Part shown: positions 1 to 64,000 of the stretch, in pieces
Layout: each line of letters begins with the position of its first letter
How positions within the stretch are numbered: position 1 is the stretch's first letter
From: Candidatus Promineifilaceae bacterium
GTDB lineage: Bacteria; Chloroflexota; Anaerolineae; Promineifilales; Promineifilaceae
Assembly (NCBI GenBank): GCA_041748655.1
Contig: JBGTCV010000089.1
Span: forward strand, 7,987 to 71,986
Length of the DNA stretch: 64,000 nucleotides
Direction: 5' to 3'
Notes under the pieces: model-generated
Database searches by the model: none
What the model saw: the letters and a program-made list of their open reading frames with translations, nothing else
Told to the model about the DNA's origin: nothing
Translations under genes and position numbers: made by a program

Positions 1-160
1 AGCGTGGCCAGACAACCAGCAGGAAACCCGGCTCATCACCGCCGCCTACGTCAAGGTGCGCTACGGCGAACTGCCGGAAACCGAACAGGAGCTAGAGGCG
101 ATCAAAGCCGCCTGGCGCACCCTGGAACAAACCCAACCCACCGAAGTAATTGACGATTAA
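1..160 (+). CDS. 3' fragment of a membrane protein ending in a DUF4129-like C-terminal domain; paralog of the next gene
   Basis: Translation in frame 2 ends ...ITAAYVKVRYGELPETEQELEAIKAAWRTLEQ, which closely parallels the C-terminus of ORF 167-1687 (ITHAYVRVRYGESPETKAEFEAIKSAWERMKE). Stop TAA at 158-160. Confidence 0.45.
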   Translation, partial: AWPDNQQETRLITAAYVKVRYGELPETEQELEAIKAAWRTLEQTQPTEVIDD

Positions 161-166
161 TAATCA

Positions 167-1687
167 ATGACAAACGCACTGACCGCAGCCACACGCCCGC
201 CCCAACAAACGCTGATTCTAGCCTGGGCCTACGTCCGGCGCGAGCTGGTTTTTATCAGCTGGGCGCTGATGGAGGTGGCGCTTCTCACCCCGCTCAGTCT
301 GGCCATTTTGCCCTGGGCCGATGAATGGTGGGGCCGACAGCGGCTCTTTGTGGGTCTGCTGCTACTGCTGTTGGCTGGTTTTTATCTGGCTCGGTTTCTA
401 AGCTGGCTCAAGCTGCCAGACCGGGATCAGCGGAATATTTTGGTAGGGACGGGGGCGATCATCCTCTTTTTTGCCCTGCGCAACATCAACTACCAGCCAG
501 AAGGATTGTTCAATTTCAGCTGGATTGGGCAAAGCTTCCGCAATCTGGCCATTGCCGGCAGCAATTTATGGCTGCGCGATCTCTTTTTGCTGATGTTAAC
601 GGCCGTTTCCTGGTGGCGTGGCTTAACGTTGCTCAATCGAGAGATCGACGTAGTGCGGGTTGGGCAGCGGTTCCGCGTGGGCGGGCTGTACATTGCGCCG
701 CTGGTCGTTTTGCTGGCGGCGCTGCGGCTGGATTGGTCGGTGCTGCCTTTTTTACTCTTCTTTTTTGCGGTAAGTCTAACGGCCGTTGCCCTCACCCGCG
801 CCGAATCGATTGAAAAAGAGCAAATGGCCGTGCTCACCTCACTGTCGCCCCGCTGGTTTGGCCTGGTGGTATCGCTGAGTGTGCTAACGACGTTTGTGGG
901 GGGTGGAACGGCCGTCTTTCTCAGCGGCATGTCGGGCGATCTGTTAGGTCGCTGGCTGGCCCCCTTTTGGAACGCGCTGCGCTGGGGCGGGGCCACCATT
1001 GGCCTCACCGCCAGCTACATCATCTCACCCTTTCTAAACAGGCTCGAAGCGTTTTTCCAACTGATCATCCGCATTTTCCAGGCTGGCTTTGCCGCACTGT
1101 TTGTGCCAAACGCAGACGCTCAGGAGGCGTCGGATGGCTTTGAAGATTTTATGGAAGCGTTCAATGAATGGCTGTTAACGCAGGAGCCGGGTGAAGCGGG
1201 GGCGGGATTGTTGAGCGGCGTTAATTGGCGGCTGGTGATCATTGGCGTTGTGCTGCTCATCGCCCTGATCATTTTTGTGCAGTTTTATCGCAAAAATCTG
1301 GTGGCACAGGGCAGCGGCCGTTTCGGCCAGCTTCTGGTTGATGCCACCAATCGACTCATCCCCACCGGATTGCGGCGCCGCAAAGAAAAAGGTAAAAATC
1401 AGGATTGGCGCGGCTGGCGAACGGCCGTTTCCATCATCAAAATTTACCAGCAAATGACCCAGATCAGCAGCGAGATCGGCTACCCACGCGGCGCGTCTGA
1501 AACCCCGTACGAATATCTGCAAACCCTGGCCCGGCTGTGGCCAGACCACAAAGCCGAGGCTCAGCTCATCACCCACGCCTACGTCCGGGTGCGCTACGGC
1601 GAATCCCCTGAAACCAAAGCCGAGTTTGAAGCGATCAAATCTGCCTGGGAACGGATGAAGGAAACGGCCGTTGCACTACCCCAATAA
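167..1687 (+). CDS. Polytopic membrane protein with a DUF4129-like C-terminal domain
   Basis: 506 aa with many hydrophobic helices. The C-terminal soluble tail contains the conserved W...RYG motif. It is a tandem paralog of the upstream fragment. Confidence 0.55.
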   Translation: MTNALTAATRPPQQTLILAWAYVRRELVFISWALMEVALLTPLSLAILPWADEWWGRQRLFVGLLLLLLAGFYLARFLSWLKLPDRDQRNILVGTGAIILFFALRNINYQPEGLFNFSWIGQSFRNLAIAGSNLWLRDLFLLMLTAVSWWRGLTLLNREIDVVRVGQRFRVGGLYIAPLVVLLAALRLDWSVLPFLLFFFAVSLTAVALTRAESIEKEQMAVLTSLSPRWFGLVVSLSVLTTFVGGGTAVFLSGMSGDLLGRWLAPFWNALRWGGATIGLTASYIISPFLNRLEAFFQLIIRIFQAGFAALFVPNADAQEASDGFEDFMEAFNEWLLTQEPGEAGAGLLSGVNWRLVIIGVVLLIALIIFVQFYRKNLVAQGSGRFGQLLVDATNRLIPTGLRRRKEKGKNQDWRGWRTAVSIIKIYQQMTQISSEIGYPRGASETPYEYLQTLARLWPDHKAEAQLITHAYVRVRYGESPETKAEFEAIKSAWERMKETAVALPQ

Positions 1688-1759
1688 ACATTTGCCACAG
1701 AGCAAAGGGAGGTTTTTAGAGCATTAGATCTCCCCTACCCTCTGTGGCTCAACCCTCTT

Positions 1760-2389
1760 TTAGTTACTCAGCATCGGCGCTTTGCGCAGCCATGTATCTG
1801 ACTGCACCTGATCCAGCATGAACCGGGCAAAATCCGCCCGCGCCAGCTGGGTTCCCGGCCCCTGTCCCGCATAGCCCACCTTCAGCTTGCCCGTTCCCTG
1901 GTTGTCGTTCAAGCGCGGCGCTCGCGCCAACGTCCACGCCAGATCGCTGCCACGAATAGCGGCCACCATCCCCTGGCTGTCGGCCAAAACGTGTTTGGCA
2001 AACAGGCGCAGCGCCAGCCCAAACAAACGGCCTACCAGCTGCGGTCTGTCATTGGGATCGGCCACACCAGCCCCCGTCGCCGCAATCAGGCGAGAAACCC
2101 CGGCGGATTTCATGGCGGCCACAATGTGGGTCATGCCTGCGGTTAACGGCCGTTCCGGACTGTTACTCGTTGGGCCTAAGCCGCTAATCACCGCATCGGC
2201 CCCGGCCACGGCCTTCGCAATTTTTTCTGCCTCAGCCATTTCACCCTGAATCACGGTCAGCCGCTCTTGGGACTGCGTGATCTTAGCGGGATTCCGTACA
2301 AAAACAGTCACCTCATAGCCATCGGCCAAAGCCTGCCTGACCAGTTCTCGTCCCGTGCCGCCGGTTGCCCCAAAAATTGTTAATTTCAT
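1760..2389 (-). CDS. NAD(P)H-binding oxidoreductase (atypical SDR / flavin reductase-like)
   Basis: N-terminal MKLTIFGATGGTGRELVRQAL Rossmann motif. The 209-aa size is typical of the NAD(P)H-binding PF13460 family. Confidence 0.8.
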   Translation of the reverse strand: MKLTIFGATGGTGRELVRQALADGYEVTVFVRNPAKITQSQERLTVIQGEMAEAEKIAKAVAGADAVISGLGPTSNSPERPLTAGMTHIVAAMKSAGVSRLIAATGAGVADPNDRPQLVGRLFGLALRLFAKHVLADSQGMVAAIRGSDLAWTLARAPRLNDNQGTGKLKVGYAGQGPGTQLARADFARFMLDQVQSDTWLRKAPMLSN

Positions 2390-2410: not shown

Positions 2411-3277
2411 TTATTTGTCGTCACTCTTTTGCCACAGGGCTGCGTGGTCGATGATAAATTGGCGCATGGTGATGGGCGGGCGGTTGAGCAAGACGGCCGT
2501 ATCCTCCGTCACCTCCTCTGCCAGACCAAACCGCGTCGTCAAATAGATCGTCGTCACCACTGCCACATATCCCAGTGGATGGCCCCGCCGCCACAGACGC
2601 CAGGCAAAGCGCAAAAAGTTGGGATTACTGTAGCGAATCGGCCGTTGCAGCACCGTCCCCATCAGCGCAGCAACTTCCGCATAATCCAGCGCCTCAGCCC
2701 CGGTCAGCGGATAAGCTCGCTGCTCATGTCCCGGTTCCGTTAACACCCGCGCCGCCACCGCCGCAATGTCCCGCGCATCAATGAACGCCGTCTTGCCCTG
2801 GCCCGCTGGCACAAAAATGTCATTCTCATCCCGGATATCCTGCAAATGGGTGGTGCTTAGATTCTGCATAAAAAAGCCGCAGCGCAGCAGCGTATAGGGT
2901 ACCGGGCCAGCCTTTAGCAGCGTCTCTACCTTGGCATGTGGCACAAACCCATTCTTCTCTGCTCCGAGCAGCGACAAAAAAACAATGTGCTGCACACCCA
3001 CCCCCGCCGCATAATCGATCACCGGTTTCATATCTCGCGCTACGTTGGAAATATGCGGCGGGCGCAGCAAAAAGAGCTTGACCACACCCTCAAAAGCCGC
3101 CGCATACGTGGCCGGGTCCGTAAAATCAAATACCCAGGCCACCCCTTCCGGTAGTCGTCTCGCCTCAGCCACAGAGGTAACTGCTGCCCGTACCGACTGC
3201 CTGATGGCCTGTAGCTGCCCTACTAACTCACGACCCACATTTCCCGTCGCGCCTGTAATCAAAATCGTTGTGTTCAT
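2411..3277 (-). CDS. NmrA-like / NAD(P)-binding domain protein
   Basis: N-terminal ILITGATGNVGRELVGQL glycine-rich motif. It is about 288 aa, which is NmrA-family size, and is co-directional with the TetR gene upstream. Confidence 0.8.
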   Translation of the reverse strand: MNTTILITGATGNVGRELVGQLQAIRQSVRAAVTSVAEARRLPEGVAWVFDFTDPATYAAAFEGVVKLFLLRPPHISNVARDMKPVIDYAAGVGVQHIVFLSLLGAEKNGFVPHAKVETLLKAGPVPYTLLRCGFFMQNLSTTHLQDIRDENDIFVPAGQGKTAFIDARDIAAVAARVLTEPGHEQRAYPLTGAEALDYAEVAALMGTVLQRPIRYSNPNFLRFAWRLWRRGHPLGYVAVVTTIYLTTRFGLAEEVTEDTAVLLNRPPITMRQFIIDHAALWQKSDDK

Positions 3278-3316: not shown

Positions 3317-3871
3317 TTAGAGCAATCGTTCAAGCTCTGTTGCGGCATCCAGCAAGGGCGCCACGTTCCGTTCGCTGCGGCTCAGAATGATAGCTCCTTC
3401 AATCAGCGCAATAACCACGGACGCCAGCCGCCGTGCCCGCACCGGTTCATAGCCCGCAGCCAGCAGCTTTTGCTCAATAACGGCCTGCCACGCCTGGTAA
3501 GCAGCAAGGCAGGCGGCGTTGAGCCGTTCATTGGTTGAGGCGGCTTCGAGAGCAACGGCCGTAATCGGCCCACCAGACTGAAACCCGCTCGCCTGCACAT
3601 AATGGGCTAAATTGCGTAAAAATGCCGGAATTGCCTCAGCCGGATTGGTGTAGGCCGCCATACCGGCCTGCAACCTTTCTACAATGATCTTGCTGGTTTG
3701 GGCAATTGCTTCCTCAACCAACCCATCCTTACCATCGGGAAAATAGTAGTAGAGCGACCCCTTCGGCGCACCACTTTCAGCTAAAATCTGATTTAAACCC
3801 GTGGCATGATAACCCTGGATTTCCATCAGTTGACAGGTTGTCTCTATAATTTGATCCCGTTTTGAGCTCAT
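3317..3871 (-). CDS. TetR/AcrR family transcriptional regulator
   Basis: N-terminal HTH with GYHATGLNQILAESGAPKGSLYYYFPDGKDGL, the classic TetR signature. Confidence 0.9.
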   Translation of the reverse strand: MSSKRDQIIETTCQLMEIQGYHATGLNQILAESGAPKGSLYYYFPDGKDGLVEEAIAQTSKIIVERLQAGMAAYTNPAEAIPAFLRNLAHYVQASGFQSGGPITAVALEAASTNERLNAACLAAYQAWQAVIEQKLLAAGYEPVRARRLASVVIALIEGAIILSRSERNVAPLLDAATELERLL

Positions 3872-4676: not shown

Positions 4677-4684
4677 GGTATTGA

Positions 4685-6416
<1,732 letters not shown>

Positions 6417-6454: not shown

Positions 6455-7009
6455 ATGTCTACAAATGTAAGCGGACGTGAGGAAACAATTACTTTGGGCG
6501 GGGGCTGCTTTTGGTGTTTGGAGGCGGTTTTTGACGAAATGCGCGGGGTGACGGACGTATTGTCTGGCTACGCGGGCGGGCACGTGGCCAACCCCACCTA
6601 CCGCGCGGTATGTGCCGAAACAACGGGGCACGCGGAGGTAGTGCAGGTGCGCTTCAATCCAGAAATCATCTCATTGAAAGAGCTGCTGTCGGTTTTCTTC
6701 ACCATTCACGACCCCACGACGCTCAACCGGCAGGGGGCGGATGTGGGCACGCAGTACCGTTCGGCAATCTATTACAACAGCGAGGCGCAGCGGGAAACGG
6801 CCGTAACCCTCATCAATGAACTTAACGAAGCCAGCATCTGGCACAACCCCATCGTGACGGAAATTGCGCCCATCGATACGTTTTACGTGGCTGAAGATTA
6901 CCATCAAAATTATTATGTCAACAATCCAGACCAGGGCTACTGCCGCGTTGTGGTCGCCCCCAAAGTGGCCAAATTCCGGCAAAAGTTCAGCCATCTGCAA
7001 ATCAGGTAG
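6455..7009 (+). CDS. msrA: Peptide-methionine (S)-S-oxide reductase
   Basis: GGGCFWCLEAVF active-site motif. An AGGAAGG RBS precedes the ATG at 6455. Confidence 0.9.
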   Translation: MSTNVSGREETITLGGGCFWCLEAVFDEMRGVTDVLSGYAGGHVANPTYRAVCAETTGHAEVVQVRFNPEIISLKELLSVFFTIHDPTTLNRQGADVGTQYRSAIYYNSEAQRETAVTLINELNEASIWHNPIVTEIAPIDTFYVAEDYHQNYYVNNPDQGYCRVVVAPKVAKFRQKFSHLQIR

Positions 7010-7077
7010 CAGCAACAAACTTGGGCTATTCGCCGCTAAAATGGGGAACGGCCGTACCAATCACCAATCCCAAATCG

Positions 7078-11727: not shown

Positions 11728-11865
11728 AGGGGGGCACAGAGCTGCACAAAGAATCTCTGTGTAACTCCGTTTAGCTCTGCGAAACTCTGTGTTCCTAAAA
11801 ATCGTTCAACTATCGTTGTTAATGGGTTGCGGGGAATGTTACAACAAAAACGGCCGTTTCTAAAA

Positions 11866-37442: not shown

Positions 37443-37676
37443 TCGTTAGGATAATGAGGTTGATGGGAAACGGCCGTTTCCCACCAGCAGTTGCGAAACA
37501 AATAACAGGGCAGGGTACCAACAATCATCCTGCCCTGTTATGTACCACCAGAATCTACCCATTTGTCACCATTTCGCCCCATGATATAATCTCAGGGTAG
37601 TTACTGTCATTTCGCCCATTGTTACAATTTTTAGCAAGCTTTTGGGCTTTCCCTTGTGTTTTTTAAGGAGGAATCG

Positions 37677-44229: not shown

Positions 44230-44363
44230 GAGATTTGAGATTAGAGATTGTTTCAATCTCCAATCTCTTCTCCATCACGATTAGGCAAAATGTCCAATTT
44301 GTAACGGCCGTTTCCAGACAAAAATCAGTTGTCAACGCCCCCGCATAGAGTACAATCCAACTC

Positions 44364-52713: not shown

Positions 52714-52942
52714 TACAAACTCCTAAAGATAGCATAGCCAATAAATTATTTTAAACAGGCTGCATTATACACGGAAACGGCCGTCTCGCAGGGCAAAAAA
52801 GTGGTGATTTCCCTACGTTTACCCTCATTTTATCTGGCTGAAAGATGTTAACAAAATAGAAAATGTAGTTAAAAAACGTTGACTTACGGCCGTTTTACGA
52901 TAGATTTGCCTTATACCTGATTTCAAGGACTGTGAGAAACTT

Positions 52943-54049: not shown

Positions 54050-57000
54050 ATGTTGCTTGTTTTTCGTCTCCTGACCCAATTTTGGCAGCGGCACAAACGG
54101 CATTTTCTTCTTTGGACGGGGCTCGTGCTGCTCACCTTTAGCACCATTTTGCTAGGGATCGATCGTTTGCCTGGCGGCGATTTCTCCGGCCAATTCCACG
54201 CCTTCGCTCTGTTTCAGGCGCGTGAAATAGCAGCGGGACGGTTACCCCTTTGGTCCCCCGGCAGCTACGGCGGCTTTCCCTTTGTGGCCGATCCGCAAGC
54301 GGCCGTTTTTTATCCTCTGCGCTGGCTGACCATTCTTGTCTCTCTGCCCTGGGGATACTCCTACTATTTGCTCGAGTTAGAAGCCATCCTTCATATCTGG
54401 CTGGCCGGGTTGTTTACCTATCTGCTGGCCTATGACCTCCTGCGGAGACGAGATGCAGCGCTTGTCAGCGGCATCATTTTTGGGCTGGGTGGCTACCTTA
54501 CTTCTTACCCACTCCTCCAATTGGCCATTTTAGAAACGATCACCTGGCTGCCGTTGGTTTTGCTGTTGGTGCGCCGGGCGTTGGCTGAAGAGACGGCTGT
54601 TCAGTTACGGCCGTTACTCATCGCCGCTCTCGTTTTGGGAATCGCCTTCACAGCGGGTCATCCGCAAACATTTTTGCAAATAAGCTACCTTACGTTGGTC
54701 TATGCTCTCTACCTGACCTGGCAGCGAGGTTGGTCAGCCGGAACGATCCTAAAAGCAGGCGTTATCACCGGAGCCGTGACGCTGGGCACAGCAGTCACCT
54801 GGCTGCCGATAGCGGCCTACACCCAGGCCAGTTCCCGCGCCGCCGTCGATTACAGTTTTGTGGCCGGGGGACTGCCTTTGGAAGATTTTCTCCAACTGTT
54901 TCTCCCGGGGACAATCTCCTTCTGGACCCCTGTAACCATAGGGACGGGCTCGCTGCTGCTGGTGCTTTTGGCCTGGCATGGCCGGGCCAGCTGGCGCGGT
55001 ACAGAGGCTGGATTTTGGGCAGGAACGGCCGTTGTCGCCGCTATCCTGTCATTGGGAGACAAAGGCTTTCTTTTTGCCATCCTTTACAAGCTGCTACCTG
55101 GCATGACTTTGTTCCGCTCTCAAGAGCGCTGGCTGGTATTCTTTAGCTTTAGCCTGGCGCTGCTGGCTGGATTTGGCCTGGTGATATGGCAAAACTGGAC
55201 GGCAGCCCGGCTAAAAACGGCCGTACGGCACTGGGCTATGGTGCTGCTGCTGCTGTTGTTGGGAACGGCCGTTAGCTTCCTGCTGGCTCCCTCCCTCACC
55301 TCACGCGACTGGCAACCCATCCTGCTGCAACGATTGTCCCTGCTGCTGGCTTTTGCTCTGCTCTTGTTTAAGCTGCGTTGGCCCAGGCTGCAATTCTGGC
55401 TGATTGCCCTACTGCTGGCTAGTGATTTGTATCTGACTACCCACGCCAGCCTGAACCGGGTGCGGCAGTCGCCCCAGGTATTTTGGCCGCAACCGGCCTG
55501 GCTCGATGTTTTGCAAAACGAAACGGCCGTTGGTCGGATCGATTCCCGCCTTATTTTTTGGAGCAATGTTGGCGAAATATACAATCTGGCCGATATTCGC
55601 GGTATCAGCCCATTGAAATATAAAAAGCTGGCCCAGCTGGAAAACCTGCCCCTGCCCCAGCGTTGGGCCTTGCTCAACGTTACCCATACTTTGCAGAAAC
55701 ATCCAGAACCGGACGTAGCGCTGACCCCTTTGGGTACGATCACCGAATCTATTGTGCCAGATGAACCGCTGCAAGCAACGCTGTACCGCCTGGATGCACC
55801 CCAGCCGTACGCCTGGATGATCTATGAGCTGTTGACCGCGCCGGATGATTCAACCGCCTTCGACCTTATCGCCGCGCCAGAATTTGATCTCAACCAACGA
55901 GTGGTTATCATCAACGCAAATGTTGCGGGGGTACAGCTACCTACCGAACCGCCTACGGTGGTCATACGGGAACGTCGCGCCGGATTTACCCAGCTGGAAG
56001 TCACAACCCAAACGGCTGGCATTTTGGTGCTGAGCGAATGGGATATGCCGGGCTGGCAGGTGCGGGTGAACGGCACAACCAGCGAAAGATTGACCGTCAA
56101 CTACGCTTTTCAGGGCGTGTGGCTGCCGCCGGGTACGCACACCGTTGTTTGGCGCTATCAGCCGTGGCAGGTAACGGCGGGCATTGTTGTTTCACTGCTC
56201 ATGGTGGGGGGAACGGCCGTCTTCCTCCAGCAACCCCGCACGTTTTCAGCTACCCCTCGGCGAGCTATACGGCTGCCCCAGCCCGTTTTCCTACGATTTA
56301 ATCTGCACCAAACCGACTCAAATCGATCCTGGCGCTGGTTTTTGCTGCTGCTAACTCTAGCCAGTTGGGCTGTTCGCCTCTTCAGCACTGCCAGCCAGGA
56401 GCTGCGCGGTGATGAAGGCTTCAGCTTTATGTTCGCCAGCTTACCCTTCAACCAGATTATTCCTCAGCTGCTTCCCGTAGGTGAACCACATTCGCCGCTG
56501 CATTACTTGCTGCTACATGGATTAATGGCCATCGCCGGGCAAAGCGAGTTTGTTATGCGGCTGCCCGCTCTTATTCCCGGCGTGCTGCTCATTCCCCTGA
56601 TGGCAGAATGGGGGCGGCTGGTGGCTGGACGGCGGGTTGGGGGAGTGGCGGCTTTGTTAACGGCCGTTTCTCAATCCCTCATTTGGCTCTCCCAAGACGT
56701 GCGCAACCAATACGCTGTCGCCATCTGCTTCACCGTGCTGGCCAGCATTTTATTAATCCGCGCCTGCCAACAACCACAACCATTTTGGCTGTGGCTAGGT
56801 TACGCGCTGGCGGCAGCCGCAGCGGCACATGGCCATTATTACGCCATCTTCGCTCTGGTTGCGCACGGGGCTTACATCTGGTTTCAACCCAAACGCTGGC
56901 AGCATTTACTTGCCTGGATGGCAGCAGGTGCGGTAGCAGCGTTACTGTTTTTGCCCTGGCCAATCATTACCTGGTCACAGTTAAGCGCCAAACATCTTTC

Positions 57001-58198
57001 CGAAACGCTCCACATCGCTTTACTCAACCATTTGCTAAGCATTGGGGAAATGTTGACTGTAGGCCCCGCTTTTGATCTGCCTCTGGCCCGGTGGGTGGTG
57101 TTGGCAGCCATTGGGCCACTGCTGGTAGGGTGGCTGTGGTGCTACCGCCGACAGCCGGCCTGGGCCTGGACCACGGCCGTCTGGTTGAGCAGCGCGACCT
57201 GGATAATCTATCTTCTGCGCTTCCGCCGCTCTATCTTCAATGATTATTACCTGTCGGTCATTGCCCCCGGCTGGTGGCTGCTAATTGCCATTGGTCTGGT
57301 CTCCCTGTGGCAGCAGCGGCGAATCTTGCTGGCTGCTGGTGGCTTGACCATTTTATTAGCCGCTAATTTGTTGAGCCTGGTTCATTATTACGCCCAACCA
57401 GAGGAATACCAGCGGTTTTTGGGGTATCGGGAGGTAGCAGACGTGTTGTCGGCAACAGAACAACCGGAAGATCTACTGCTGCTGCATTCACCGGACCCTG
57501 CTTTTGATTATTACTTGCGCAGCCTGAATCTGCCCCAAACACGCCAGCCAGAAACGTTTGGGATGTCTACGGCCGTTCTTGAAGCTAAAATCGCCGATCT
57601 GGCAGCAAGCTATGACCGCATCTGGTTTGTGCCAGTAGACGATAATATTGTGGACCCAACGGCCATTATCCCACGCTGGCTGGATTATCATCTACTGCAT
57701 GAGCTGGATCTGACTTTGCATAAACTACATTTACAGGCGTTCCGCCCCATCAGCAGCGTGGATACGGTTCTGCTGCCGCTCGACAAAAATCTGCACGATT
57801 GGCTGACATTGGTGGGATTTTACCTGACGGTAAACGGCCGTCCTATCGAGGTAGAATCATTTATCACTGCGCCTGGCGACACCATAACCCTCACGCTCGT
57901 CTGGCAAACACAGCAGAGCGTTCCGGCCGATTTCACCATCTTCGTCCACTTAATGGGCGAAGATGGCCAGCTCGTAACACAACAAGACAATATGCCTTTA
58001 TTCAACACACGCCCGACAACAGGTTGGCAGCCTGGGGAACGGTTCATCGACCGGTATGAATTGGTAATCCCAGAAAATGCACCGGGGCAGTCTGCGATGC
58101 TGCTGGTGGGGATGTATGATGCTGCAACGGGGGAGCGGCAATCGTTTGGCCAGGGAGAAACGGCCGTACCGCTGGGGATGGTGATGATACGGCCGTAA
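54050..58198 (+). CDS. Giant polytopic membrane protein: N-terminal YfhO-like GT-C module fused to a C-terminal PMT/ArnT-like (GT39/GT83-type) GT-C module
   Basis: The N-terminal half resembles the YfhO family (LWSPGSYGGFPFVADPQAAVFYP). At about residue 780, LRGDEGFSFMFA...HSPLHYLLLHG resembles the dolichyl/undecaprenyl-phosphate sugar-dependent PMT_2/ArnT family. Dozens of TM helices. Confidence 0.65.
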   Translation: MLLVFRLLTQFWQRHKRHFLLWTGLVLLTFSTILLGIDRLPGGDFSGQFHAFALFQAREIAAGRLPLWSPGSYGGFPFVADPQAAVFYPLRWLTILVSLPWGYSYYLLELEAILHIWLAGLFTYLLAYDLLRRRDAALVSGIIFGLGGYLTSYPLLQLAILETITWLPLVLLLVRRALAEETAVQLRPLLIAALVLGIAFTAGHPQTFLQISYLTLVYALYLTWQRGWSAGTILKAGVITGAVTLGTAVTWLPIAAYTQASSRAAVDYSFVAGGLPLEDFLQLFLPGTISFWTPVTIGTGSLLLVLLAWHGRASWRGTEAGFWAGTAVVAAILSLGDKGFLFAILYKLLPGMTLFRSQERWLVFFSFSLALLAGFGLVIWQNWTAARLKTAVRHWAMVLLLLLLGTAVSFLLAPSLTSRDWQPILLQRLSLLLAFALLLFKLRWPRLQFWLIALLLASDLYLTTHASLNRVRQSPQVFWPQPAWLDVLQNETAVGRIDSRLIFWSNVGEIYNLADIRGISPLKYKKLAQLENLPLPQRWALLNVTHTLQKHPEPDVALTPLGTITESIVPDEPLQATLYRLDAPQPYAWMIYELLTAPDDSTAFDLIAAPEFDLNQRVVIINANVAGVQLPTEPPTVVIRERRAGFTQLEVTTQTAGILVLSEWDMPGWQVRVNGTTSERLTVNYAFQGVWLPPGTHTVVWRYQPWQVTAGIVVSLLMVGGTAVFLQQPRTFSATPRRAIRLPQPVFLRFNLHQTDSNRSWRWFLLLLTLASWAVRLFSTASQELRGDEGFSFMFASLPFNQIIPQLLPVGEPHSPLHYLLLHGLMAIAGQSEFVMRLPALIPGVLLIPLMAEWGRLVAGRRVGGVAALLTAVSQSLIWLSQDVRNQYAVAICFTVLASILLIRACQQPQPFWLWLGYALAAAAAAHGHYYAIFALVAHGAYIWFQPKRWQHLLAWMAAGAVAALLFLPWPIITWSQLSAKHLSETLHIALLNHLLSIGEMLTVGPAFDLPLARWVVLAAIGPLLVGWLWCYRRQPAWAWTTAVWLSSATWIIYLLRFRRSIFNDYYLSVIAPGWWLLIAIGLVSLWQQRRILLAAGGLTILLAANLLSLVHYYAQPEEYQRFLGYREVADVLSATEQPEDLLLLHSPDPAFDYYLRSLNLPQTRQPETFGMSTAVLEAKIADLAASYDRIWFVPVDDNIVDPTAIIPRWLDYHLLHELDLTLHKLHLQAFRPISSVDTVLLPLDKNLHDWLTLVGFYLTVNGRPIEVESFITAPGDTITLTLVWQTQQSVPADFTIFVHLMGEDGQLVTQQDNMPLFNTRPTTGWQPGERFIDRYELVIPENAPGQSAMLLVGMYDAATGERQSFGQGETAVPLGMVMIRP

Positions 58199-58234: not shown

Positions 58235-59191
58235 TCATTTTTCGTCGGGGAAGCCCCACTTTTTGTCTACCAGGTACAACGGCCGTCCCTTCACCTCGTC
58301 ATAAATTCGGCCCAAATATTCACCGATGATCCCCAGGCTAATCAGCTGTACGCCGCCCAAAAAGAGCACCGACACCAGCGTGGTGGCCTGGCCAAGCAGC
58401 GGATTTTCCGGGCCAAAAAGCCGAATCAAGATCACTGCCAAAATCGACAATCCGCTGATAATGGCAATGATGAAACCGAGGTAAGTAGCCAATTGCAGCG
58501 GTAAATAGGAGAAGCTGGTAATGGCATCCAGCGCAAAGGGCAGCATCTGGCGCACGCTGCCAAATTTGGACTCCCCGGCAAAGCGGCTGGCCCGCTCATA
58601 CTCCACGCCGGTTTGTTTGAAGCCCACCCAGGGAATCATGCCGCGCAAAAAGCGGTTGCGCTCTGGCATGTTGTTGATGGCATTCACCACCCGCCGGTCC
58701 ATCAGGCGAAAATCCCCTGTGTCCAGCGGAATGTCAATATTGGTGATGCGCCGAATCAGCCGGTAGAAAACTTTGGCGGTAAACTGCTTGAACCAGGTTT
58801 CCCCCACCCGGCTGGCACGCACCCCGTACACCACTTCGTACCCCTCACGCCATTTGGCGATCATCTTCGGGTACAGTTCGGGTGGGTCCTGCAAATCAGC
58901 GTCGGTGAGAATGACGGCATCCCCCTGAGCGTGGTTCAGCCCGGCGGTGACGGCCACCTGGAAGCCAAAATTGCGCGAGAAGCTGATCCCTTTGACACGC
59001 GAATCCTTCTGGTGCAGTTCGGCAATCACCTCGGCCGAGCGGTCCCGGCTGCCGTCGTTGACCAGCACCAGTTCCCACGGCTCGCCAAAGGCGTCCAGCA
59101 CCTGACTCACGCGGCGATACAGCTCGTTCAGCACCGCTTCTTCATTGTAAACAGGTGAAACGATGGAGATAGTTGGTTTTGTTTGATCCAT
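58235..59191 (-). CDS. GT2 polyprenyl-phosphate sugar synthase (CsbB/GtrB/ArnC-like) with C-terminal TM helices
   Basis: [11 protein letters not shown]...[10 protein letters not shown]...[11 protein letters not shown]2 DXD motifs; two C-terminal TM helices typical of GtrB/DPM1-like enzymes. Confidence 0.85.
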
Positions 59192-59271: not shown

Positions 59272-60543
59272 TTAATCCCCCTGTTTATTAAAAATACGCT
59301 CTACGGCCGTAATCTCCGGCGCAATTGTCACGGCCTGGCCCACTGATTTCATGGCTGAATTTACATCTTTCAGCCCGCTGCCCGTCAGAATGAGCACCAC
59401 GCGGGCGTCTGGGCCAATCAGGCCGGTTTGGGCCGCTTTCAGGAAGCCTGCGTAAGTAGCGGCCGAGGCGGGTTCGGCAAAAACACCGCTGCCCTGGGCC
59501 AGGGCGGGAATCGCCGCCAGGATTTGCGCATCCGTCACCGTGATGAATGCGCCGTTGGTCTGGCGAACGGCCGTAAACGCCTTAATCCTGTCGCGGGGCA
59601 GCCCGGCACTGATGCTGTCGGCCACCGTGTTGGCCACAATGGGCGGTTTGGTCAGCACATCCTCATTGTTGGCCCAGGCATCGTGCAAATAGGCCGAGCC
59701 TTCTGCCTGCACGCCGATGATTTCGGGCAACGGCCGTTCGGCAGGCAAATAGCCCGCTGCCATCAAATCCCGGACCCCTTTATACACACCACTGATGATG
59801 CAACCATCACCCACGGAGACAAAGAGATGGGTGATGGGGGGCACATTGGCCGCTCGCTGCTGTTTAAGTTGCGCGTACAGCTCAAAACTGACGGTTTTCT
59901 TGCCTTCGGCCATGTACGGATTGTACCCCGTGTTGCGGCAGTACCAGCCAAACCGCTCCGTGGCTTGCAGGCAGAGGTCGAAGGCGTCGTCGTAGGTGCC
60001 TTCCACCAGCAGCACCGTTGCGCCATAAACGAGCAGCTGAGCAATTTTGGCAGCGGGGGCGGAAGCGGGTACAAAAATGACCGTTTTTTGCCCCACGCTG
60101 GCGGCCAATCCGGCCAAAGCAGCAGCGGCGTTGCCCGTACTGGCGGTGGTCACAATCTCGGCCCCTAGCTCCTGGGCTTTCATGATGGCCACGGCGCTGG
60201 CCCTGTCTTTGAGAGAGGCGGTGGGATTACGGCCGTCATCCTTCAGCCACAATTCGGCCACGCCCGCCGCCTGGACCAGACGTGGCGCTTCTTGCAGCGG
60301 CGTGCCGCCTACGATCAGCGGCGGGGCAGGCAGGTTTTCTGCGACAGGTAAAAACGGCCGATAGGCAAACATCCCCCCGCTGGCGGCGGGCAGATGATCC
60401 CCAATTTCGGCGCGTATGGCGTCGTAATCGTACTCCACGTCCAAAATACCCTCGTTGCCGTGGTCGGGGCAAACGTACAGCAGCTCATCGGGCTGGTAAA
60501 CTTTGTGGCAAATGACGCAGCGCAAGCCAGTGACATTTTTCAT
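59272..60543 (-). CDS. thrC: Threonine synthase
   Basis: N-terminal zinc-ribbon cysteines (CVICHKVYQ..CPDHG) and PLP fold (TASTGNAAAALA); 423 aa. Confidence 0.9.
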   Translation of the reverse strand: MKNVTGLRCVICHKVYQPDELLYVCPDHGNEGILDVEYDYDAIRAEIGDHLPAASGGMFAYRPFLPVAENLPAPPLIVGGTPLQEAPRLVQAAGVAELWLKDDGRNPTASLKDRASAVAIMKAQELGAEIVTTASTGNAAAALAGLAASVGQKTVIFVPASAPAAKIAQLLVYGATVLLVEGTYDDAFDLCLQATERFGWYCRNTGYNPYMAEGKKTVSFELYAQLKQQRAANVPPITHLFVSVGDGCIISGVYKGVRDLMAAGYLPAERPLPEIIGVQAEGSAYLHDAWANNEDVLTKPPIVANTVADSISAGLPRDRIKAFTAVRQTNGAFITVTDAQILAAIPALAQGSGVFAEPASAATYAGFLKAAQTGLIGPDARVVLILTGSGLKDVNSAMKSVGQAVTIAPEITAVERIFNKQGD

Positions 60544-60640: not shown

Positions 60641-61411
60641 CTAAATTTCTAAAGTTGCCAACAGCCCCACATGGTCCGACGGATAGAGCGTATCGTCGTC
60701 CGGGGCGGGCAGATCGCAAAAAATACGGGCTTCGGGCACGCGGCGAATGCCGGAGGAGACGAAGATGTAATCCAGGCAGCCAGACCAATCCCACGGTGGC
60801 AGCAGGGCGGTGGGGAAGGTGGCCAACGGCTCAAAGCCATGCCGCAGCTGGTAGGCAGAGCGAAAGCGCTGCTTCATGATCTGGATGGCGGGACCATCAG
60901 GAACCTCGTTGAAATCTCCGGCGACCACCTGGGCAGGGATGGGGCGGCTGTCGGCCAGCCAGCCGGTAAGCATAAGCGCCTGCTCTTGCCGGGCCTGCTT
61001 GTCGGTGGCTGGATGGTGGAAATGGGTGGAGACAAAATCGAGCGGCTGGCGGTTGCTCAGCTCCACGTTGACCCGCAGGGCCACCCGGCCACCGTAGCCC
61101 AAATTGAGGCTGTCCGTGTACAAAATGGGCAGGTTGCTCAGCACGCCAATCCCTTCCAGGTAGCCATAAATGGGGTGCTGCTTGCGGATTTGGATGAGAC
61201 GATACGGCCGTTTCCCTTCCGGCATCCGGGCATTGATCTGGTTGCGAATCCAGCGCCCCTGGGCAATGGGAAAGCTAATCTCTTGCAGGCTGATCAGGTT
61301 GGGCAGCACGTCTAGCAGCTGGGCCACCAGCAAATGACGTCGTTCGCGCCAGCGGTCTGCCCGATTACGTAAATTAATAGTCGCAGCTGTTATCTGTGGC
61401 ATTGCATCCAA
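60641..61411 (-). CDS. Endonuclease/exonuclease/phosphatase (EEP) family protein
   Basis: ATINLRN...LISLQEIS N-terminal EEP motifs; C-terminal SDH catalytic triad region (YPSDHVGL). Confidence 0.75.
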   Translation of the reverse strand: MDAMPQITAATINLRNRADRWRERRHLLVAQLLDVLPNLISLQEISFPIAQGRWIRNQINARMPEGKRPYRLIQIRKQHPIYGYLEGIGVLSNLPILYTDSLNLGYGGRVALRVNVELSNRQPLDFVSTHFHHPATDKQARQEQALMLTGWLADSRPIPAQVVAGDFNEVPDGPAIQIMKQRFRSAYQLRHGFEPLATFPTALLPPWDWSGCLDYIFVSSGIRRVPEARIFCDLPAPDDDTLYPSDHVGLLATLEI

Positions 61412-61433: not shown

Positions 61434-62963
61434 TCATTCAAGGTCGATTTCGGTGGTGCCGCTGGGAACGGCCGTTTGAATCGACTGGTTGGCATCCCGC
61501 AGCGTCAGGGTAAAGGGAACGTCGGTGGTCAACCTTAATTTAGTGGCATCGGCCACCATAGACAGCGTGCCGTCTGGCCCCAGCGGGTAATTTTCCACAC
61601 CGTAGGGCAACTCAGACGCCAGCCGCCGATCCCAAAAAACGCGCCGCTGCGGCCAATCGACCGAAATACCAATGACGTCTTCCAGCAAAATAGCGATGGG
61701 GCTTAGGCCAGCCATGCCCACGGGGTCTTTAGCGGCGGGATCGCCGGGAGCGGCCGTTTCCGGGGCATAATTTTCCCAAAAAGCGCCGGTCAGATCATAC
61801 ACCTCGGCCACGTTAGCCAGGTGGTTGACGGCAATTTCATGGGCCAGGCCATGCTGCCCCACCTGGCGCAGGCCGCACAGCACCATAAAGTTGGTGCAGG
61901 GCCAGACGCCGCCGCGCCAAAAGTTGCCTGTTTCAAAGTTGTACCCTTCGCTGTCGGCTGACTGGCTGGGAATGCGGTGGTGCAGCTTGAACGCCCAATT
62001 TTCGCGCAGAGCCTTCACAAACGGCTCCAGCCGCTTTTCCGGAATCAGGCCAGCATCCAGCAGACCCCAGTAAGCGGCGATGCTTTTGATCTGGCTGAAA
62101 CGGCCGTTTGCATCTACATCCTGATAAAATTGGGTCGCTTCATTCCAAAGGGTGCTGTTGATTAATTCCACCAGACGGGCGTGCTCTTCCTCCAGTTCGT
62201 TCGACAACGCCTCCTGGTGTAAAAGCGCGGCCATCTGCGCCAAAACCAGGCTGTTGATGGCTGCCTGAAGCGAAGCATCTACCCAGCTCCAGTGGCGATG
62301 GTGAAAGCGGCTGCTGGGCACGCGGGGCTGGTTGCTCAGCCCGCTGCTGTGCCCGGTGGCCCAATACAGCCCGTTGGGCCAGGTGCGGTTGGCCTGGCAC
62401 CAGCGATGATAGGCCACCAGCGGCGGAAACACTTTCTCCAGGCGGCTATCATCGCCCGTAAACCGGTAATTGCGCCACTCCACCCAGGCCAAAATGTTGG
62501 GGCCGGTGGCGTTGGGGTCGAAGGGATAGAAAAAATCCTCGCCGGTGGTCAGGTCGATTTGGCGGCAAATGAAGCCATCGTTATGCTGTTTGGCGTACAG
62601 ATTGTCCAGGTTGCCCATGAAGTCGAAGGCGCGACGGCCGTATAAGCCAAACTGGGTCATGAAGGCGCTGTCCCACATGAAGAGAAAATCGTCTGTAGCG
62701 GCGTCCAGGAAGTTGGCCACAAAGCCAGACTCCGGCCGGGGCTGGCGCAAATGGTGCCAGGCCAGCTCCCAGGCTCGCCAGTAAAGCCCCACCCATGCGC
62801 TGTGTTCCGGCAGGATGGGCTGCGGCAGCGCTGCTTTGGCCTCGGCAAAGGATGGCCACGCTTGCAAGGCGTACGTCTGTTGTCGAAACTTGTTTTGGGC
62901 GACGAGGGGCTCAGACGGCCGTTCAAATTTAGGATGTGGCTGCGGCATGATGGGATACTCCAC
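61434..62963 (-). CDS. Six-hairpin (alpha/alpha)6 glycoside hydrolase-like protein (GH63/GH37/GH100-like; family not resolved)
   Basis: 509 aa, cytoplasmic, with W/F/Y-rich blocks (FLFMWDSAF, WENYAPETA) reminiscent of (alpha/alpha)6-barrel glycosidases. The assignment is tentative. Confidence 0.45.
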   Translation of the reverse strand: MEYPIMPQPHPKFERPSEPLVAQNKFRQQTYALQAWPSFAEAKAALPQPILPEHSAWVGLYWRAWELAWHHLRQPRPESGFVANFLDAATDDFLFMWDSAFMTQFGLYGRRAFDFMGNLDNLYAKQHNDGFICRQIDLTTGEDFFYPFDPNATGPNILAWVEWRNYRFTGDDSRLEKVFPPLVAYHRWCQANRTWPNGLYWATGHSSGLSNQPRVPSSRFHHRHWSWVDASLQAAINSLVLAQMAALLHQEALSNELEEEHARLVELINSTLWNEATQFYQDVDANGRFSQIKSIAAYWGLLDAGLIPEKRLEPFVKALRENWAFKLHHRIPSQSADSEGYNFETGNFWRGGVWPCTNFMVLCGLRQVGQHGLAHEIAVNHLANVAEVYDLTGAFWENYAPETAAPGDPAAKDPVGMAGLSPIAILLEDVIGISVDWPQRRVFWDRRLASELPYGVENYPLGPDGTLSMVADATKLRLTTDVPFTLTLRDANQSIQTAVPSGTTEIDLE

Positions 62964-63035
62964 TAAAGTTTTTCAACGCCGAGACGGAGAGGCGCAGAGA
63001 AAAGCACACCGGTTTCACCGGGGGTTTGCAGTTGG

Positions 63036-63749
63036 CTAACGATTCACCAGTAGTTCGGCCGTACCGCCCAGCTGGAGACTGTTTTCATTGAAATTCACAA
63101 CGCGAAACGTGTAGCGAATAGCCACATTTTCCTGCAAGGAGCCAATCCAGGTGATTGAATCCCCCAGCGCAAACAGCGGATGCCCGGTCAGGCCCGTCAG
63201 CCGGGCCGAATCTACCTGGCCCTGCGTCGAGATACCATCGTACACTAACGTAGTGCCGGGAATTGTCCAGCCAACCGGCACGTTGTGGGCCATCACGATA
63301 TTGTTATACCGAATGGCATTCGGCCAATCGGGCATTAACGGCAGCGGTGCCGCCACCGGATTCAACACCGTTATTTCCACCGGGCCGGCAACGGGCAGCG
63401 GTCCCAGAAAATCGGGGGCCAGACGCAGGTTATATTTGGCAAAGACACTGGGGGCGACAATGCCGTTCCAGATGAAGGAATCACCGACCCGCTTTTGGGC
63501 CGGTTCGCCATCAATCTTGACGTCGTGCAGGTCGCCGGTTTTGCCCACGTATTGCAGCTGGGAGCCAGGCACCATATTCCCTGGCTCCAGGCTGTAGGAG
63601 TAGGCTGGAATCAAAAAAGTCATGGTATCGCCAGCGGGGGTTGGGGTTACGGCCGTTTCGTCCGAACCGGTACCAGGAATGGTGCAAGCCAGCGCCGCCA
63701 AACACAAAACGAGCCAAAAACCAGCCAGACTTTTAAATGAATGCCTCAT
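63036..63749 (-). CDS. Secreted lipoprotein, hypothetical
   Basis: Signal peptide with lipobox LAALACT; no recognizable family. Confidence 0.4.
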   Translation of the reverse strand: MRHSFKSLAGFWLVLCLAALACTIPGTGSDETAVTPTPAGDTMTFLIPAYSYSLEPGNMVPGSQLQYVGKTGDLHDVKIDGEPAQKRVGDSFIWNGIVAPSVFAKYNLRLAPDFLGPLPVAGPVEITVLNPVAAPLPLMPDWPNAIRYNNIVMAHNVPVGWTIPGTTLVYDGISTQGQVDSARLTGLTGHPLFALGDSITWIGSLQENVAIRYTFRVVNFNENSLQLGGTAELLVNR

Positions 63750-63897
63750 TTTTCCCTCTTAGGAATGCACATTAAAAACTTGCACATCTACCCTCCCCCT
63801 AACCCCCTCCCCCAATGGAGGAGGGCTAGGGAGGGGGAAAACCGTAAGTTATTAAATTTCTGTTCCTTACCACTTTTCACTTATCACTTCTCACTTT

Positions 63898-64000
63898 CTA
63901 ATCAGTTTCAATCGTAATCGTCATGATACGGTCGCCGTCCGGAGCATTGGGGTCTTGTGGATCACGCGGGGTGATGCCTTCAACAACATCCATACCCTCG
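63898..64000 (-). CDS. 3' end of a cyclophilin-type peptidyl-prolyl cis-trans isomerase (partial, continues beyond the window)
   Basis: Reverse-strand translation ...EGMDVVEGITPRDPQDPNAPDGDRIMTITIETD* matches the cyclophilin C-terminus (GMDVV ... P...I.I). Confidence 0.55.
   Translation of the reverse strand, partial: EGMDVVEGITPRDPQDPNAPDGDRIMTITIETD

Follow-up and report, generated by a model that had tools for sequence, protein, structure and literature searches.

The 64,000-base window analyzed here (the whole stretch of DNA from contig JBGTCV010000089.1 of a Candidatus Promineifilaceae bacterium) contains 98 copies of the palindromic octamer ACGGCCGT, distributed along its entire length at 1.53 copies per kb or 1531 per Mb. 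The octamer is very probably an element of the highly iterated palindrome (HIP) type, maintained at the DNA level throughout a lineage of Chloroflexota. It has the characteristics of such elements, being a short perfect palindrome found hundreds to thousands of times per Mb at tens- to hundreds-fold excess, present in coding and non-coding DNA, in all reading frames and across a lineage rather than as a local repeat, and conserved at its sites beyond what codon and amino acid conservation would give.

The excess over expectation is large. Dinucleotide-preserving shuffles of the window (n=100) contained a mean of 1.11 copies and a maximum of 4, and Markov models of orders 0, 1, 2, 3 and 4 predicted 1.4, 1.2, 2.2, 4.0 and 9.6 copies, giving an observed-to-expected ratio (O/E) of about 69-88 against composition or shuffles and of 10 against order 4. 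Orders 5 and 6 predict 41 and 88 copies, values near the observed count because such models are built from sub-words of ACGGCCGT itself and are circular. The octamer is by far the commonest 8-mer of the window, with its own overlapping words as runners-up, and accounts for 98 of the 143 CGGCCG hexamers, these being the ones flanked by A...T. Beyond the octamer, A is found at -1 in 66 of 98 copies and T at +8 in 58. Both sides are extended to AACGGCCGTT in 38 copies (39%; 0.09 expected), and three copies carry the full 14-mer GAAACGGCCGTTTC. A first-pass annotation of this DNA had estimated by eye 90-100 copies, about one per 650 bp, where a random 8-mer would appear once or twice; both figures agree with the exact counts, each of its 22 example positions has a real copy no more than 8 bp away, and the enrichment holds against shuffles and Markov orders 0-4. 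Its statement that most copies extend to AACGGCCGTT and many to GAAACGGCCGTTTC was too generous.

A DNA-level force puts ACGGCCGT at nearly every position that the proteins permit, and in doing so shifts protein composition. Ninety copies (92%) are located inside open reading frames (ORFs) and eight between them, in line with the 90% coding fraction. All three frames are used, with 57 copies read as Thr-Ala-Val (TAV), 19 as xGR and 14 as xRPx, and positions with a compatible peptide carry the octamer in 57 of 60, 19 of 21 and 13 of 18 cases, respectively (72-95%). When every protein and the codon usage were kept and synonymous codons resampled, 10.2-12.8 in-ORF copies were expected, compared to the 90 observed. 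Thr-Ala-Val is the commonest tripeptide of the window proteins (60 occurrences, 9 expected), while its five permutations are found only 4-19 times each, and it is spelled by ACGGCCGT in 57 of 60 cases where codon usage predicts 15%. Near-saturation of permissive sites, together with a tripeptide excess that is spelled as the motif, indicates that the force distorts protein sequences and that it acts on DNA, the latter as the first-pass annotation had supposed from the use of all frames and of spacers. An artefact of composition, codon usage or protein motif, in which a favored Thr-Ala-Val peptide or favored codons would generate the copies, could draw on the dominance of frame 0 (ACG GCC GTn), to which 57 of the 90 copies belong, and on the frequent use of the codons ACG and GCC. 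However, resampling with fixed proteins yields only 10-13 copies, the other two frames are also near saturation, reversed or permuted tripeptides are not enriched, and in motif-poor relatives TAV is scarce and spelled differently. These observations rule out a protein-level or codon-bias origin, for which we see practically no chance.

We retrieved 80 Chloroflexota genomes through pyrG (CTP synthase), each sampled by about 20 kb around that gene. The region itself was found as an identical copy in only one run-level assembly (Logan SRR28170463), and CTP synthase places it closest to Promineifilaceae of activated sludge, Candidatus Leptofilum species among them (90-92% amino acid identity). Of the 80 relatives' loci, 47 have ACGGCCGT as their top palindromic 8-mer, at 0.8-2.5 per kb; pooled motif-rich relatives including the window contain 1384 copies in 863 kb. 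On a rough single-gene neighbor-joining sketch, the 47 motif-rich genomes form one large clade containing the window. Groups nested within it, among them the Promineifilum-like loci L052, L065, L071 and L079, have lost the octamer bias and still show CGGCCG about 4-6-fold enriched. Other lineages use different dialects. Locus L053 has CCCGGCCGGG, with 44 copies of CCGGCCGG in 21.6 kb, L077 has TCGGCCGA, L059 has flank-free CGGCCG (87 in 14 kb, or 6.2 per kb), and L064 and L074 have TGCCGGCA (34 in 21.6 kb and 16 in 16 kb) and are nearly devoid of CGGCCG, with one copy each. Several related lineages show no hyper-abundant palindrome. The presence of ACGGCCGT as top 8-mer across relatives, together with the dialect pattern, indicates a heritable genomic property rather than one local to the window, which is the lineage-specific property that the first-pass annotation had proposed, and which enrichment confined to this window would have contradicted.

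The same force holds ACGGCCGT sites in place across species. Close relatives (about 80% nucleotide identity) have the motif at the aligned position for 67-100% of the window copies, compared to 20-29% for any 8-mer, these counts being site-by-genome cells and not independent events. At conserved amino acids, relatives use the same synonymous codon 85-100% of the time inside the motif and 42-68% of the time outside it. Motif-poor relatives show no such difference between positions inside and outside the motif; they often keep the same peptide spelled with other codons, or have other residues. The codon and site conservation tests repeat those of Xu et al. for HIP1 (PMC5861425). Conservation of orthologous positions between species also bears on whether the copies are a small mobile element, such as a repetitive extragenic palindromic sequence (REP) or miniature inverted-repeat transposable element (MITE). 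The palindromic form of ACGGCCGT and the extension of some intergenic copies to 14 bp would suit such a repeat, but 90 of 98 copies lie in ORFs in proportion to coding density, and information is limited to about 10-18 bp with otherwise unrelated flanks, whereas REP/MITE elements are dispersed outside genes as imperfect palindromes at least 20-40 bp long. The intragenic copies, and the lack of covariation between mirrored positions beyond the first, rule out a REP/MITE or hairpin origin, and we give it next to no weight.

What the force reads is a strict CGGCCG core with two independent, symmetric half-site flanks (GGGAA next to ACGG). In the 863 kb of pooled relatives, one-off variants inside CGGCCG have O/E values of 0.4-1.2 and one-off variants at the outer A/T flanks 1.6-5.7, so variants inside the core are not tolerated and flank variants are, in agreement with the CGGCCG-type target named by the first-pass annotation. 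Peptide-compatible sites at which both flanks fit (T-A-V) show an occupancy of 0.96 and those at which one does 0.29-0.46, and the bare hexamer in hosts is occupied at 0.07-0.16, the baseline of motif-poor relatives. Symmetric preferences continue beyond the octamer, with GGGAA before and TTCCC after ACGGCCGT, and are strongest in intergenic copies. This results in a symmetric, footprint-like consensus of about 18 bp, GGGAAACGGCCGTTTCCC, to which the two half-sites contribute additively. Mirrored flank positions showed no covariation beyond the first flanking position, and symmetric flanks without covariation suggest that a symmetric protein reads two half-sites additively, and not that a hairpin is selected. 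Biased mismatch repair, another suggestion of the first-pass annotation, would in its simple very short patch (VSP) form leave a Dcm/Vsr-like depletion of C>T one-off variants, which was looked for and not seen in the pooled relatives. C>T variants, with O/E values of 1.0-1.2, are in fact the highest among core variants, and orthologous-site differences are spread over all three cytosines of the core.

Temperate phages of these hosts, like the other mobile elements in them, are subject to the force as well. A 14-mer search of viral contigs matched 113 stretches, 43 of which contain at least 0.8 ACGGCCGT per kb, and terminase, portal and integrase genes confirmed the phage identity of motif-rich contigs. 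One of these, L169, encodes a terminase, a portal protein and methyltransferases, including two DNA methyltransferases (L169:72-998 and L169:9695-10996), one with a DPPY (adenine-type) motif and one belonging to an S(P/T)PY family. Further unrelated beta-class methyltransferases are encoded in L191 and L139, and a C5-cytosine methyltransferase in L158. A separate "viral" contig, L085 (IMGVR_UViG_3300033417_000002, 1-13185), has 3.7 ACGGCCGT per kb. Its genes for a ParA-like protein, an FtsK/SpoIIIE-like translocase, a lytic transglycosylase and an ATPase give it the look of a plasmid or conjugative element, not that of a phage.

A beta-class methyltransferase with the S(P/T)PY catalytic motif is common to two motif-rich viral contigs (74% identity). 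The family is small, and all of its 68 homologues contain the Pfam domain PF01555 (N6_N4_Mtase). S44, P46 and Y47 are invariant, and an FCGAGT AdoMet motif is C-terminal to the catalytic motif, as in beta-class N4/N6 amino-methyltransferases; the enzyme matches PADLOC MTase_II, and the JGI label is cytosine-N4-specific. The serine-type motif and the label favor N4-methylcytosine (4mC), which is probably its product. The gene adjoins terminase genes in temperate phages with integrases. Contigs were retrieved here by protein and not by motif, and those with closer homologues contain 2-3.4 ACGGCCGT per kb and up to 9 CGGCCG per kb, the latter in L195 with 186 hexamers over 20.8 kb. In 18-19 of the 21 contigs whose homologue is full-length and at least 30% identical, CGGCCG shows the highest enrichment among the 64 hexamer palindromes, with O/E values of 3.3-12.6, and this includes contigs without octamer enrichment. 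Contigs with more remote beta-class methyltransferases showed no CGGCCG excess. Bare-hexamer occupancy in methyltransferase-bearing phages is 0.28-0.39, unlike the 0.07-0.16 of hosts. The prophage in L195 shows both patterns side by side, since its phage body has 40 octamers among 172 hexamers and the adjacent host flank 9 among 14. This co-occurrence suggests that the phage enzyme may be specific for CGGCCG; solved structures and family libraries did not yield its target.

The L195 prophage (1-20816; GCA_014584575.1, JACTMP010000070.1) encodes an integrase, HicAB, a terminase and the S(P/T)PY methyltransferase, with 9.8 CGGCCG per kb inside the prophage and a host-like, octamer-dominated flank of 3.3 kb. 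A metagenome scan with the methyltransferase alignment recovered only nine loci. Another phage-like contig, L203, with a distant homologue of the enzyme, carries a prokaryotic ubiquitin-like cluster of Prok_Ub, Prok-E2, JAB and ThiF at 16154-20361, and a viral contig with a GC content of 0.47 (L235, IMGVR_UViG_3300012887_000002, 1-12304) is enriched 12-fold for GCCGGC, 9-fold for CGGCCG and 6-fold for TGGCCA. A search for phages of the TGCCGGCA dialect returned only chance matches, mostly in unrelated high-GC contigs.

One methyltransferase gene was encountered in a host locus, in a two-gene insertion (L048:10139-12078) between an LPG-synthase-like gene and an E1 dehydrogenase gene. The insertion has a GC content of 0.50 compared to 0.59-0.63 around it, and is free of ACGGCCGT over 2 kb, against about 2 copies per kb in its flanks. 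One of its genes codes for a beta-class TSPPY DNA methyltransferase; the other is an ORF of 315 amino acids that had no match in Pfam, NCBIfam, PADLOC or PDB and is possibly a restriction enzyme. As part of a low-GC, motif-free, inserted foreign element, this methyltransferase was rejected as a conserved writer of the motif.

We favor, with a probability of about 0.45, a mechanism in which ACGGCCGT serves as a methylation-linked "self" tag. The CGGCCG core would be a target of DNA methylation, and the methylated palindrome would be read by a symmetric (dimeric) protein at DNA entry, recombination or repair. DNA with more tags would survive, or replace untagged alleles, more often, so that tags would build up to saturation. 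In the host only flanked copies would count, because the writer or the reader would need the A..T flanks, whereas phages with their own flank-independent CGGCCG methyltransferase would be pushed at bare hexamers too. We infer a methylated core because it is a classical Type II site around which the flanks vary as HIP1 variants do around CGATCG (PMC4390886), because phages pair an orphan methyltransferase with a higher, flank-independent core load, as would make sense if it is the methylated core that matters and the writer settles which copies are marked, and because methylated HIP1 raises transformation in Synechococcus, by up to 100-fold and with non-homologous DNA included (bioRxiv 10.1101/2024.09.10.611283). 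HIP1 has likewise been proposed as an uptake or recombination signal (10.64898/2026.06.24.733823), and both 4mC and 5-methylcytosine (5mC) at CGGCCG exist in unrelated environmental bins (Nanomotif supplement). The avoidance associated with an active Type II target is absent, CGGCCG being over-represented 6.5-fold in hosts and 7-12-fold in phages, and close to missing in the TGCCGGCA-dialect relatives L064 and L074 only. A broader proposal, possible but doubtful, is that of a second, independently evolved HIP, in which a methylated CGGCCG-core palindrome would be a quantitative "self" mark deciding the fate of DNA that enters Promineifilaceae cells or recombines in them. Temperate phages would counterfeit the mark with even more copies and their own flank-independent CGGCCG (probably N4-cytosine) methyltransferase, and the flanks of the different lineages (A..T, C..G, T..A, or none) would reflect co-evolving writer and reader specificities.

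Several observations weigh against a methylation-linked tag. Site conservation and saturation are equally predicted by a function-free conversion drive. The copies are irregularly spaced, with a coefficient of variation of 1.12 and a variance exceeding the mean in 2-kb bins, which makes a strict spacing requirement unlikely. The best solved relative of the phage methyltransferase is M.RsrI, an adenine methylase producing N6-methyladenine (6mA), and a 5-kb contig with a 50%-identical homologue (L218) has no CGGCCG excess. The co-occurrence of enzyme and motif could also reflect shared host range and not the target. Finally, a regex scan for host DNA methyltransferases in the 80 relatives' loci found none except that of the L048 island, and neither a methyltransferase nor a Vsr gene was found in the 64 kb. 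The methyltransferase link suggested in the first-pass annotation has indirect support only, through the phage family that co-occurs with CGGCCG enrichment.

The main rival to the methylation-linked tag, although we think it unlikely, is that function-free drive, in which a repair or conversion enzyme with ACGGCCGT-like specificity turns near-matches into the motif and restores mutated copies as a mere by-product. It would explain why peptide-compatible sites are almost saturated in all frames, why core one-off variants are mildly depleted (O/E 0.4-1.2, compared to mostly 1.2-1.4, range 0.1-1.4, in motif-poor genomes), why the motif builds up in phages and mobile elements replicating in these cells, and why the recently inserted L048 island has no copies; the graded dependence on half-sites resembles the recognition profile of an enzyme. 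A Dcm/Vsr-type drive is contradicted by the C>T variants, which are the commonest in the core, and by ortholog differences at all three cytosines, and any such drive leaves the enrichment of bare CGGCCG in methyltransferase-bearing phages but not in hosts unexplained. Furthermore, we know of no repair drive that yields an octamer excess of about 90-fold; the CCWGG/Vsr effect is small.

Two other explanations have less in their favor. An uptake signal of the kind represented by the uptake signal sequence (USS) and DNA uptake sequence (DUS), in which a competence receptor prefers the unmethylated motif and uptake with recombination accumulates copies, would be in keeping with about 1.5 copies per kb, intragenic location, peptide effects, weak extended flanks, dialects, conservation and absence from a fresh island, and a recent proposal makes HIP1 itself an uptake sequence (10.64898/2026.06.24.733823). 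We nevertheless hold it improbable, since known uptake sequences are asymmetric and ACGGCCGT is a perfect palindrome, and since phages with more copies than the host and with a methyltransferase are not predicted by a drive on chromosomal alleles. Slightly less probable again is a binding site for an abundant symmetric chromosome-organizing or nucleoid protein, which selection on chromosome structure would favor without any part for methylation. The symmetric consensus of about 18 bp with additive half-sites would suit such a protein, and a nucleoid-related role was argued for HIP1 by Xu et al. in 2018 (PMC5861425). However, it explains neither the bare-hexamer enrichment in methyltransferase-bearing phages nor why the flanks have changed repeatedly while the core, which resembles a restriction site, stayed constant; spacing is irregular, and no candidate protein was identified.

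The gene content of the window is that of an ordinary piece of chromosome, with pyrG, msrA, cmoA/cmoB, an E1 dehydrogenase, STAND/BTAD regulators, Tad-type pilins, ABC transporters, a metH-like gene, moaA and glycosyltransferases; tRNA and Rfam scans of the 64 kb gave no match. In many places long ORFs, for example 4757-6400(-), 12840-14018(+) and 28329-29804(+), run antisense to real genes, as expected from the high GC content at third codon positions (GC3, about 0.7), and are not extra genes. The individual copies are given below with the coordinates of the octamer and without strand. The eight copies between ORFs are GGAACGGCCGTACC (7048..7055), AAAACGGCCGTTTC (11850..11857), CTAACGGCCGTAAC (12419..12426), GAAACGGCCGTTTT (32710..32717), the full 14-mer GAAACGGCCGTTTC (37470..37477), GTAACGGCCGTTTC (44304..44311), GAAACGGCCGTCTC (52777..52784) and CTTACGGCCGTTTT (52886..52893).

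At the left end, ORF 167-1687(+) contains five copies, all in the TAV frame: TTAACGGCCGTTTC (599..606), CTAACGGCCGTTGC (779..786), GGAACGGCCGTCTT (908..915), CGAACGGCCGTTTC (1421..1428) and GAAACGGCCGTTGC (1664..1671). It is followed by ORF 1760-2389(-) with TTAACGGCCGTTCC (2146..2153, ERPL), and by ORFs 2411-3277(-) and 3317-3871(-), with AAGACGGCCGTATC (2493..2500) and GCAACGGCCGTAAT (3555..3562), both TAV. In pyrG (4685-6373(+)), CAGACGGCCGTCTC (6177..6184, DGR) is kept in 12 of 12 close relatives and 32 of 35 other motif-rich ones, and is accompanied by CAAACGGCCGTTGC (6299..6306, TAV); msrA (6374-7009(+)) has GAAACGGCCGTAAC (6797..6804, TAV). ORF 7078-8085(-) carries AAAACGGCCGTTTC (7095..7102, KRPF), GAGACGGCCGTCCA (7696..7703, DGR) and TAAACGGCCGTGTT (7954..7961, HGR), ORF 8164-8892(-) carries TCAACGGCCGTAAT (8633..8640, TAV), and ORF 9628-11727(-) carries GATACGGCCGTCTC (10050..10057, RRPY), AAAACGGCCGTTTG (10282..10289, NGR), GCAACGGCCGTTCC (10619..10626, TAV), CGAACGGCCGTATG (10982..10989, TAV) and TAAACGGCCGTGAG (11472..11479, SRPF). 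A single TAV copy, ATGACGGCCGTTCC (11888..11895), lies in ORF 11866-12273(-).

Two adjacent regulators at 12780-17513, a STAND NTPase (932 amino acids) and a BTAD-AAA protein (543 amino acids), have nine copies, all in the TAV frame. Those in ORF 12780-15578(-) are AACACGGCCGTTTC (12913..12920), GGTACGGCCGTCTC (13075..13082), CAGACGGCCGTTCC (14782..14789), GGAACGGCCGTTTC (14986..14993) and AGAACGGCCGTATT (15379..15386), and those in ORF 15882-17513(-) are AGAACGGCCGTATA (16114..16121), AGGACGGCCGTTTC (16771..16778), TGAACGGCCGTTTG (17110..17117) and AAAACGGCCGTGTC (17167..17174). A motif-poor stretch comes next (17748-26838), in which a Tad-pilin/CARDB/CBM gene group has one copy in four genes totaling about 6.9 kb. 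ORF 19833-21176(+) has GGTACGGCCGTTGC (19905..19912) and AAAACGGCCGTTGC (20475..20482), both TAV, ORF 21183-21860(+) has CGCACGGCCGTTTC (21279..21286, TAV), ACGACGGCCGTTCC (21367..21374, DGR) and AAAACGGCCGTCTC (21754..21761, NGR), and ORF 23298-25223(+) has GGAACGGCCGTTCC (24444..24451, TAV). Further along are GCGACGGCCGTTTA (27030..27037, NGR) in ORF 26949-28040(-), then GTAACGGCCGTTTG (28339..28346, TAV), AGTACGGCCGTTTG (28399..28406, TAV) and GGCACGGCCGTATT (29313..29320, YGR) in ORF 28245-29762(-), GAAACGGCCGTATC (31062..31069, KRPY) in ORF 30823-31290(+) and TAAACGGCCGTTCC (32475..32482, NGR) in ORF 31502-32500(+). A second motif-poor stretch (33052-38861) consists of ABC-transporter and solute-binding genes with one copy in 5.8 kb and a lower GC3 of 0.50-0.60; ACAACGGCCGTTCT (33715..33722, TAV), in ORF 33052-34770(+), is the sole copy in the genes of this 33.0-38.9 kb interval. 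Both stretches may be younger or differently constrained DNA.

TTTACGGCCGTGAA (39872..39879, YGR) is in ORF 39148-39900(+), and ORF 39995-41665(+) contains ACAACGGCCGTTTC (40014..40021, NGR), CGTACGGCCGTTTC (40208..40215, TAV) and GGAACGGCCGTACT (41000..41007, TAV). ORF 41753-43324(+) has three TAV copies, GAAACGGCCGTTGC (42353..42360), TTAACGGCCGTTTG (42665..42672) and GGAACGGCCGTCCT (42689..42696), as well as the full 14-mer GAAACGGCCGTTTC (42826..42833, KRPF). ACAACGGCCGTCAC (43459..43466, DGR) and GTAACGGCCGTCTT (44189..44196, TAV) are in ORF 43363-44202(-), and TAV copies follow in ORF 44640-44945(-) as AAAACGGCCGTTCC (44893..44900) and in ORF 47278-48411(+) as AGTACGGCCGTTCC (47878..47885) and GTAACGGCCGTTTC (48124..48131). 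The third full 14-mer, GAAACGGCCGTTTC (48573..48580, TAV), shares ORF 48459-49622(+) with CCAACGGCCGTTCC (48729..48736, TAV), GGCACGGCCGTTTA (49520..49527, ARPF) and TTTACGGCCGTTTC (49593..49600, TAV). Six copies occupy ORF 49670-51559(-): TAAACGGCCGTAAT (49753..49760, LRPF), ATTACGGCCGTTGT (49889..49896) and ATAACGGCCGTTTG (50531..50538), both NGR, and AGAACGGCCGTTGT (50577..50584), GCAACGGCCGTTTC (51045..51052) and TTAACGGCCGTCTG (51285..51292), all TAV.

In the last part of the window, TAAACGGCCGTCGC (53367..53374, NGR) is found in ORF 52943-53968(+), and the long ORF 54050-58198(+) holds twelve copies. Nine of these are read as TAV, namely GGAACGGCCGTTGT (55025..55032), AAAACGGCCGTACG (55217..55224), GGAACGGCCGTTAG (55265..55272), GAAACGGCCGTTGG (55523..55530), GGAACGGCCGTCTT (56213..56220), TTAACGGCCGTTTC (56660..56667), ACCACGGCCGTCTG (57173..57180), TCTACGGCCGTTCT (57569..57576) and GAAACGGCCGTACC (58160..58167); the others are GTTACGGCCGTTAC (54607..54614, LRPL), TAAACGGCCGTCCT (57834..57841, NGR) and GATACGGCCGTAAC (58189..58196), which reads IRP and then a stop codon. 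ORF 58235-59191(-) has ACAACGGCCGTCCC (58279..58286, GRPL), and ORF 59272-60543(-) has TCTACGGCCGTAAT (59303..59310, TAV), CGAACGGCCGTAAA (59567..59574, TAV), GCAACGGCCGTTCG (59730..59737, ERPL) and ATTACGGCCGTCAT (60229..60236, DGR). The remaining copies are GATACGGCCGTTTC (61204..61211, KRPY) in ORF 60641-61411(-), GGAACGGCCGTTTG (61468..61475, TAV), GAAACGGCCGTTTG (62100..62107, NGR), GCGACGGCCGTATA (62634..62641, YGR) and CAGACGGCCGTTCA (62915..62922, ERPS) in ORF 61434-62963(-), and GTTACGGCCGTTTC (63649..63656, TAV) in ORF 63036-63749(-).

HIP1 was recognized about 30 years ago and, to our knowledge, has been seen in cyanobacteria only; what it does is still debated. We found no report of ACGGCCGT, of CGGCCG over-representation or of a HIP-like element in Chloroflexota in the searchable literature, with subscription journals lying outside the search, which bears out the impression of the first-pass annotation that the motif had not been described for such genomes. 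A second system turns a single-lineage curiosity into a comparative problem, with dozens of sequenced genomes (many of them long-read and carrying methylation signal), dialects and matching phages. With two unrelated systems, one can ask which methyltransferase, competence, recombination or repair genes co-vary with motif presence and dialect. The motif visibly reshapes the proteome, to the point that Thr-Ala-Val is the commonest tripeptide, and as a k-mer signature it is very strong, of use in binning and in linking phages and plasmids of activated-sludge metagenomes to their Promineifilaceae hosts. If the "self" tag is real, unmethylated or motif-less DNA would be predicted to transform these bacteria poorly.

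Among known systems, USS in Pasteurellaceae and DUS in Neisseriaceae occur about once per kb, mostly inside genes, where they reshape peptides; they have a strict core, soft flanks and dialects, are rare in recently acquired DNA, and are asymmetric with no methylation link. ACGGCCGT is similar in density, genic location, dialects and rarity in new DNA, but its higher density in phages would be unexpected for USS or DUS, and where these have an asymmetric 9-12-mer core it is a perfect palindrome with symmetric flanks. Dcm/Vsr and CCWGG offer the example of a methylated palindrome raised by repair bias, with a small effect and a predicted depletion of T variants that is not seen for ACGGCCGT. 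Chi, too, is an over-represented octamer, a "self" mark that modulates the processing of DNA ends, but it is asymmetric, orientation-dependent, much less enriched and unmethylated; Kamoku and Nielsen described the effect of HIP1 on homologous recombination as reminiscent of Chi (bioRxiv 10.1101/2024.09.10.611283).

The closest likeness is to HIP1 itself (GCGATCGC), which is also an octamer palindrome with high O/E in genes and spacers, has sites and codons conserved beyond codon-level expectation and a palindromic consensus that exceeds the 8-mer, and has an inner hexamer resembling a Type II restriction or methylation site (PMC4390886, PMC5861425). At 1.53 per kb and an O/E of about 70-88, the abundance of ACGGCCGT falls within the published HIP1 range of 0.3-2.7 per kb (300-2700 per Mb) and O/E 55-228 (PMC4390886), as the first-pass annotation had anticipated in likening the two. 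The HIP variants of atypical cyanobacteria (TCGATCGA, GGGATCCC, CAGGCCTG, and a GGCGCC type) are lineage-specific switches of the flanks or of the whole palindrome, and parallel the Promineifilales dialects ACGGCCGT, CCGGCCGG, TCGGCCGA, bare CGGCCG and TGCCGGCA, although the former are rare exceptions in one phylum and the latter come from uncultured genomes with one locus each. ACGGCCGT is not HIP1 proper, that is, GCGATCGC or a derivative with a CGATCG/GATC core in cyanobacteria, since its core is CGGCCG and its phylum Chloroflexota (Promineifilaceae). One-off variants are common for HIP1 and rare for ACGGCCGT. That compatible codons are nearly saturated, and that phages have the higher density, holds for ACGGCCGT; we have seen neither reported for HIP1. 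The host methyltransferases of HIP1 are DmtA and DmtC (m5C/m6A orphans), whereas the enzyme linked to ACGGCCGT is a phage amino-methyltransferase, probably acting on N4 of cytosine. ACGGCCGT is therefore an independent counterpart of HIP1, with a different core, a different phylum and a different probable methylation chemistry, plus a phage dimension.

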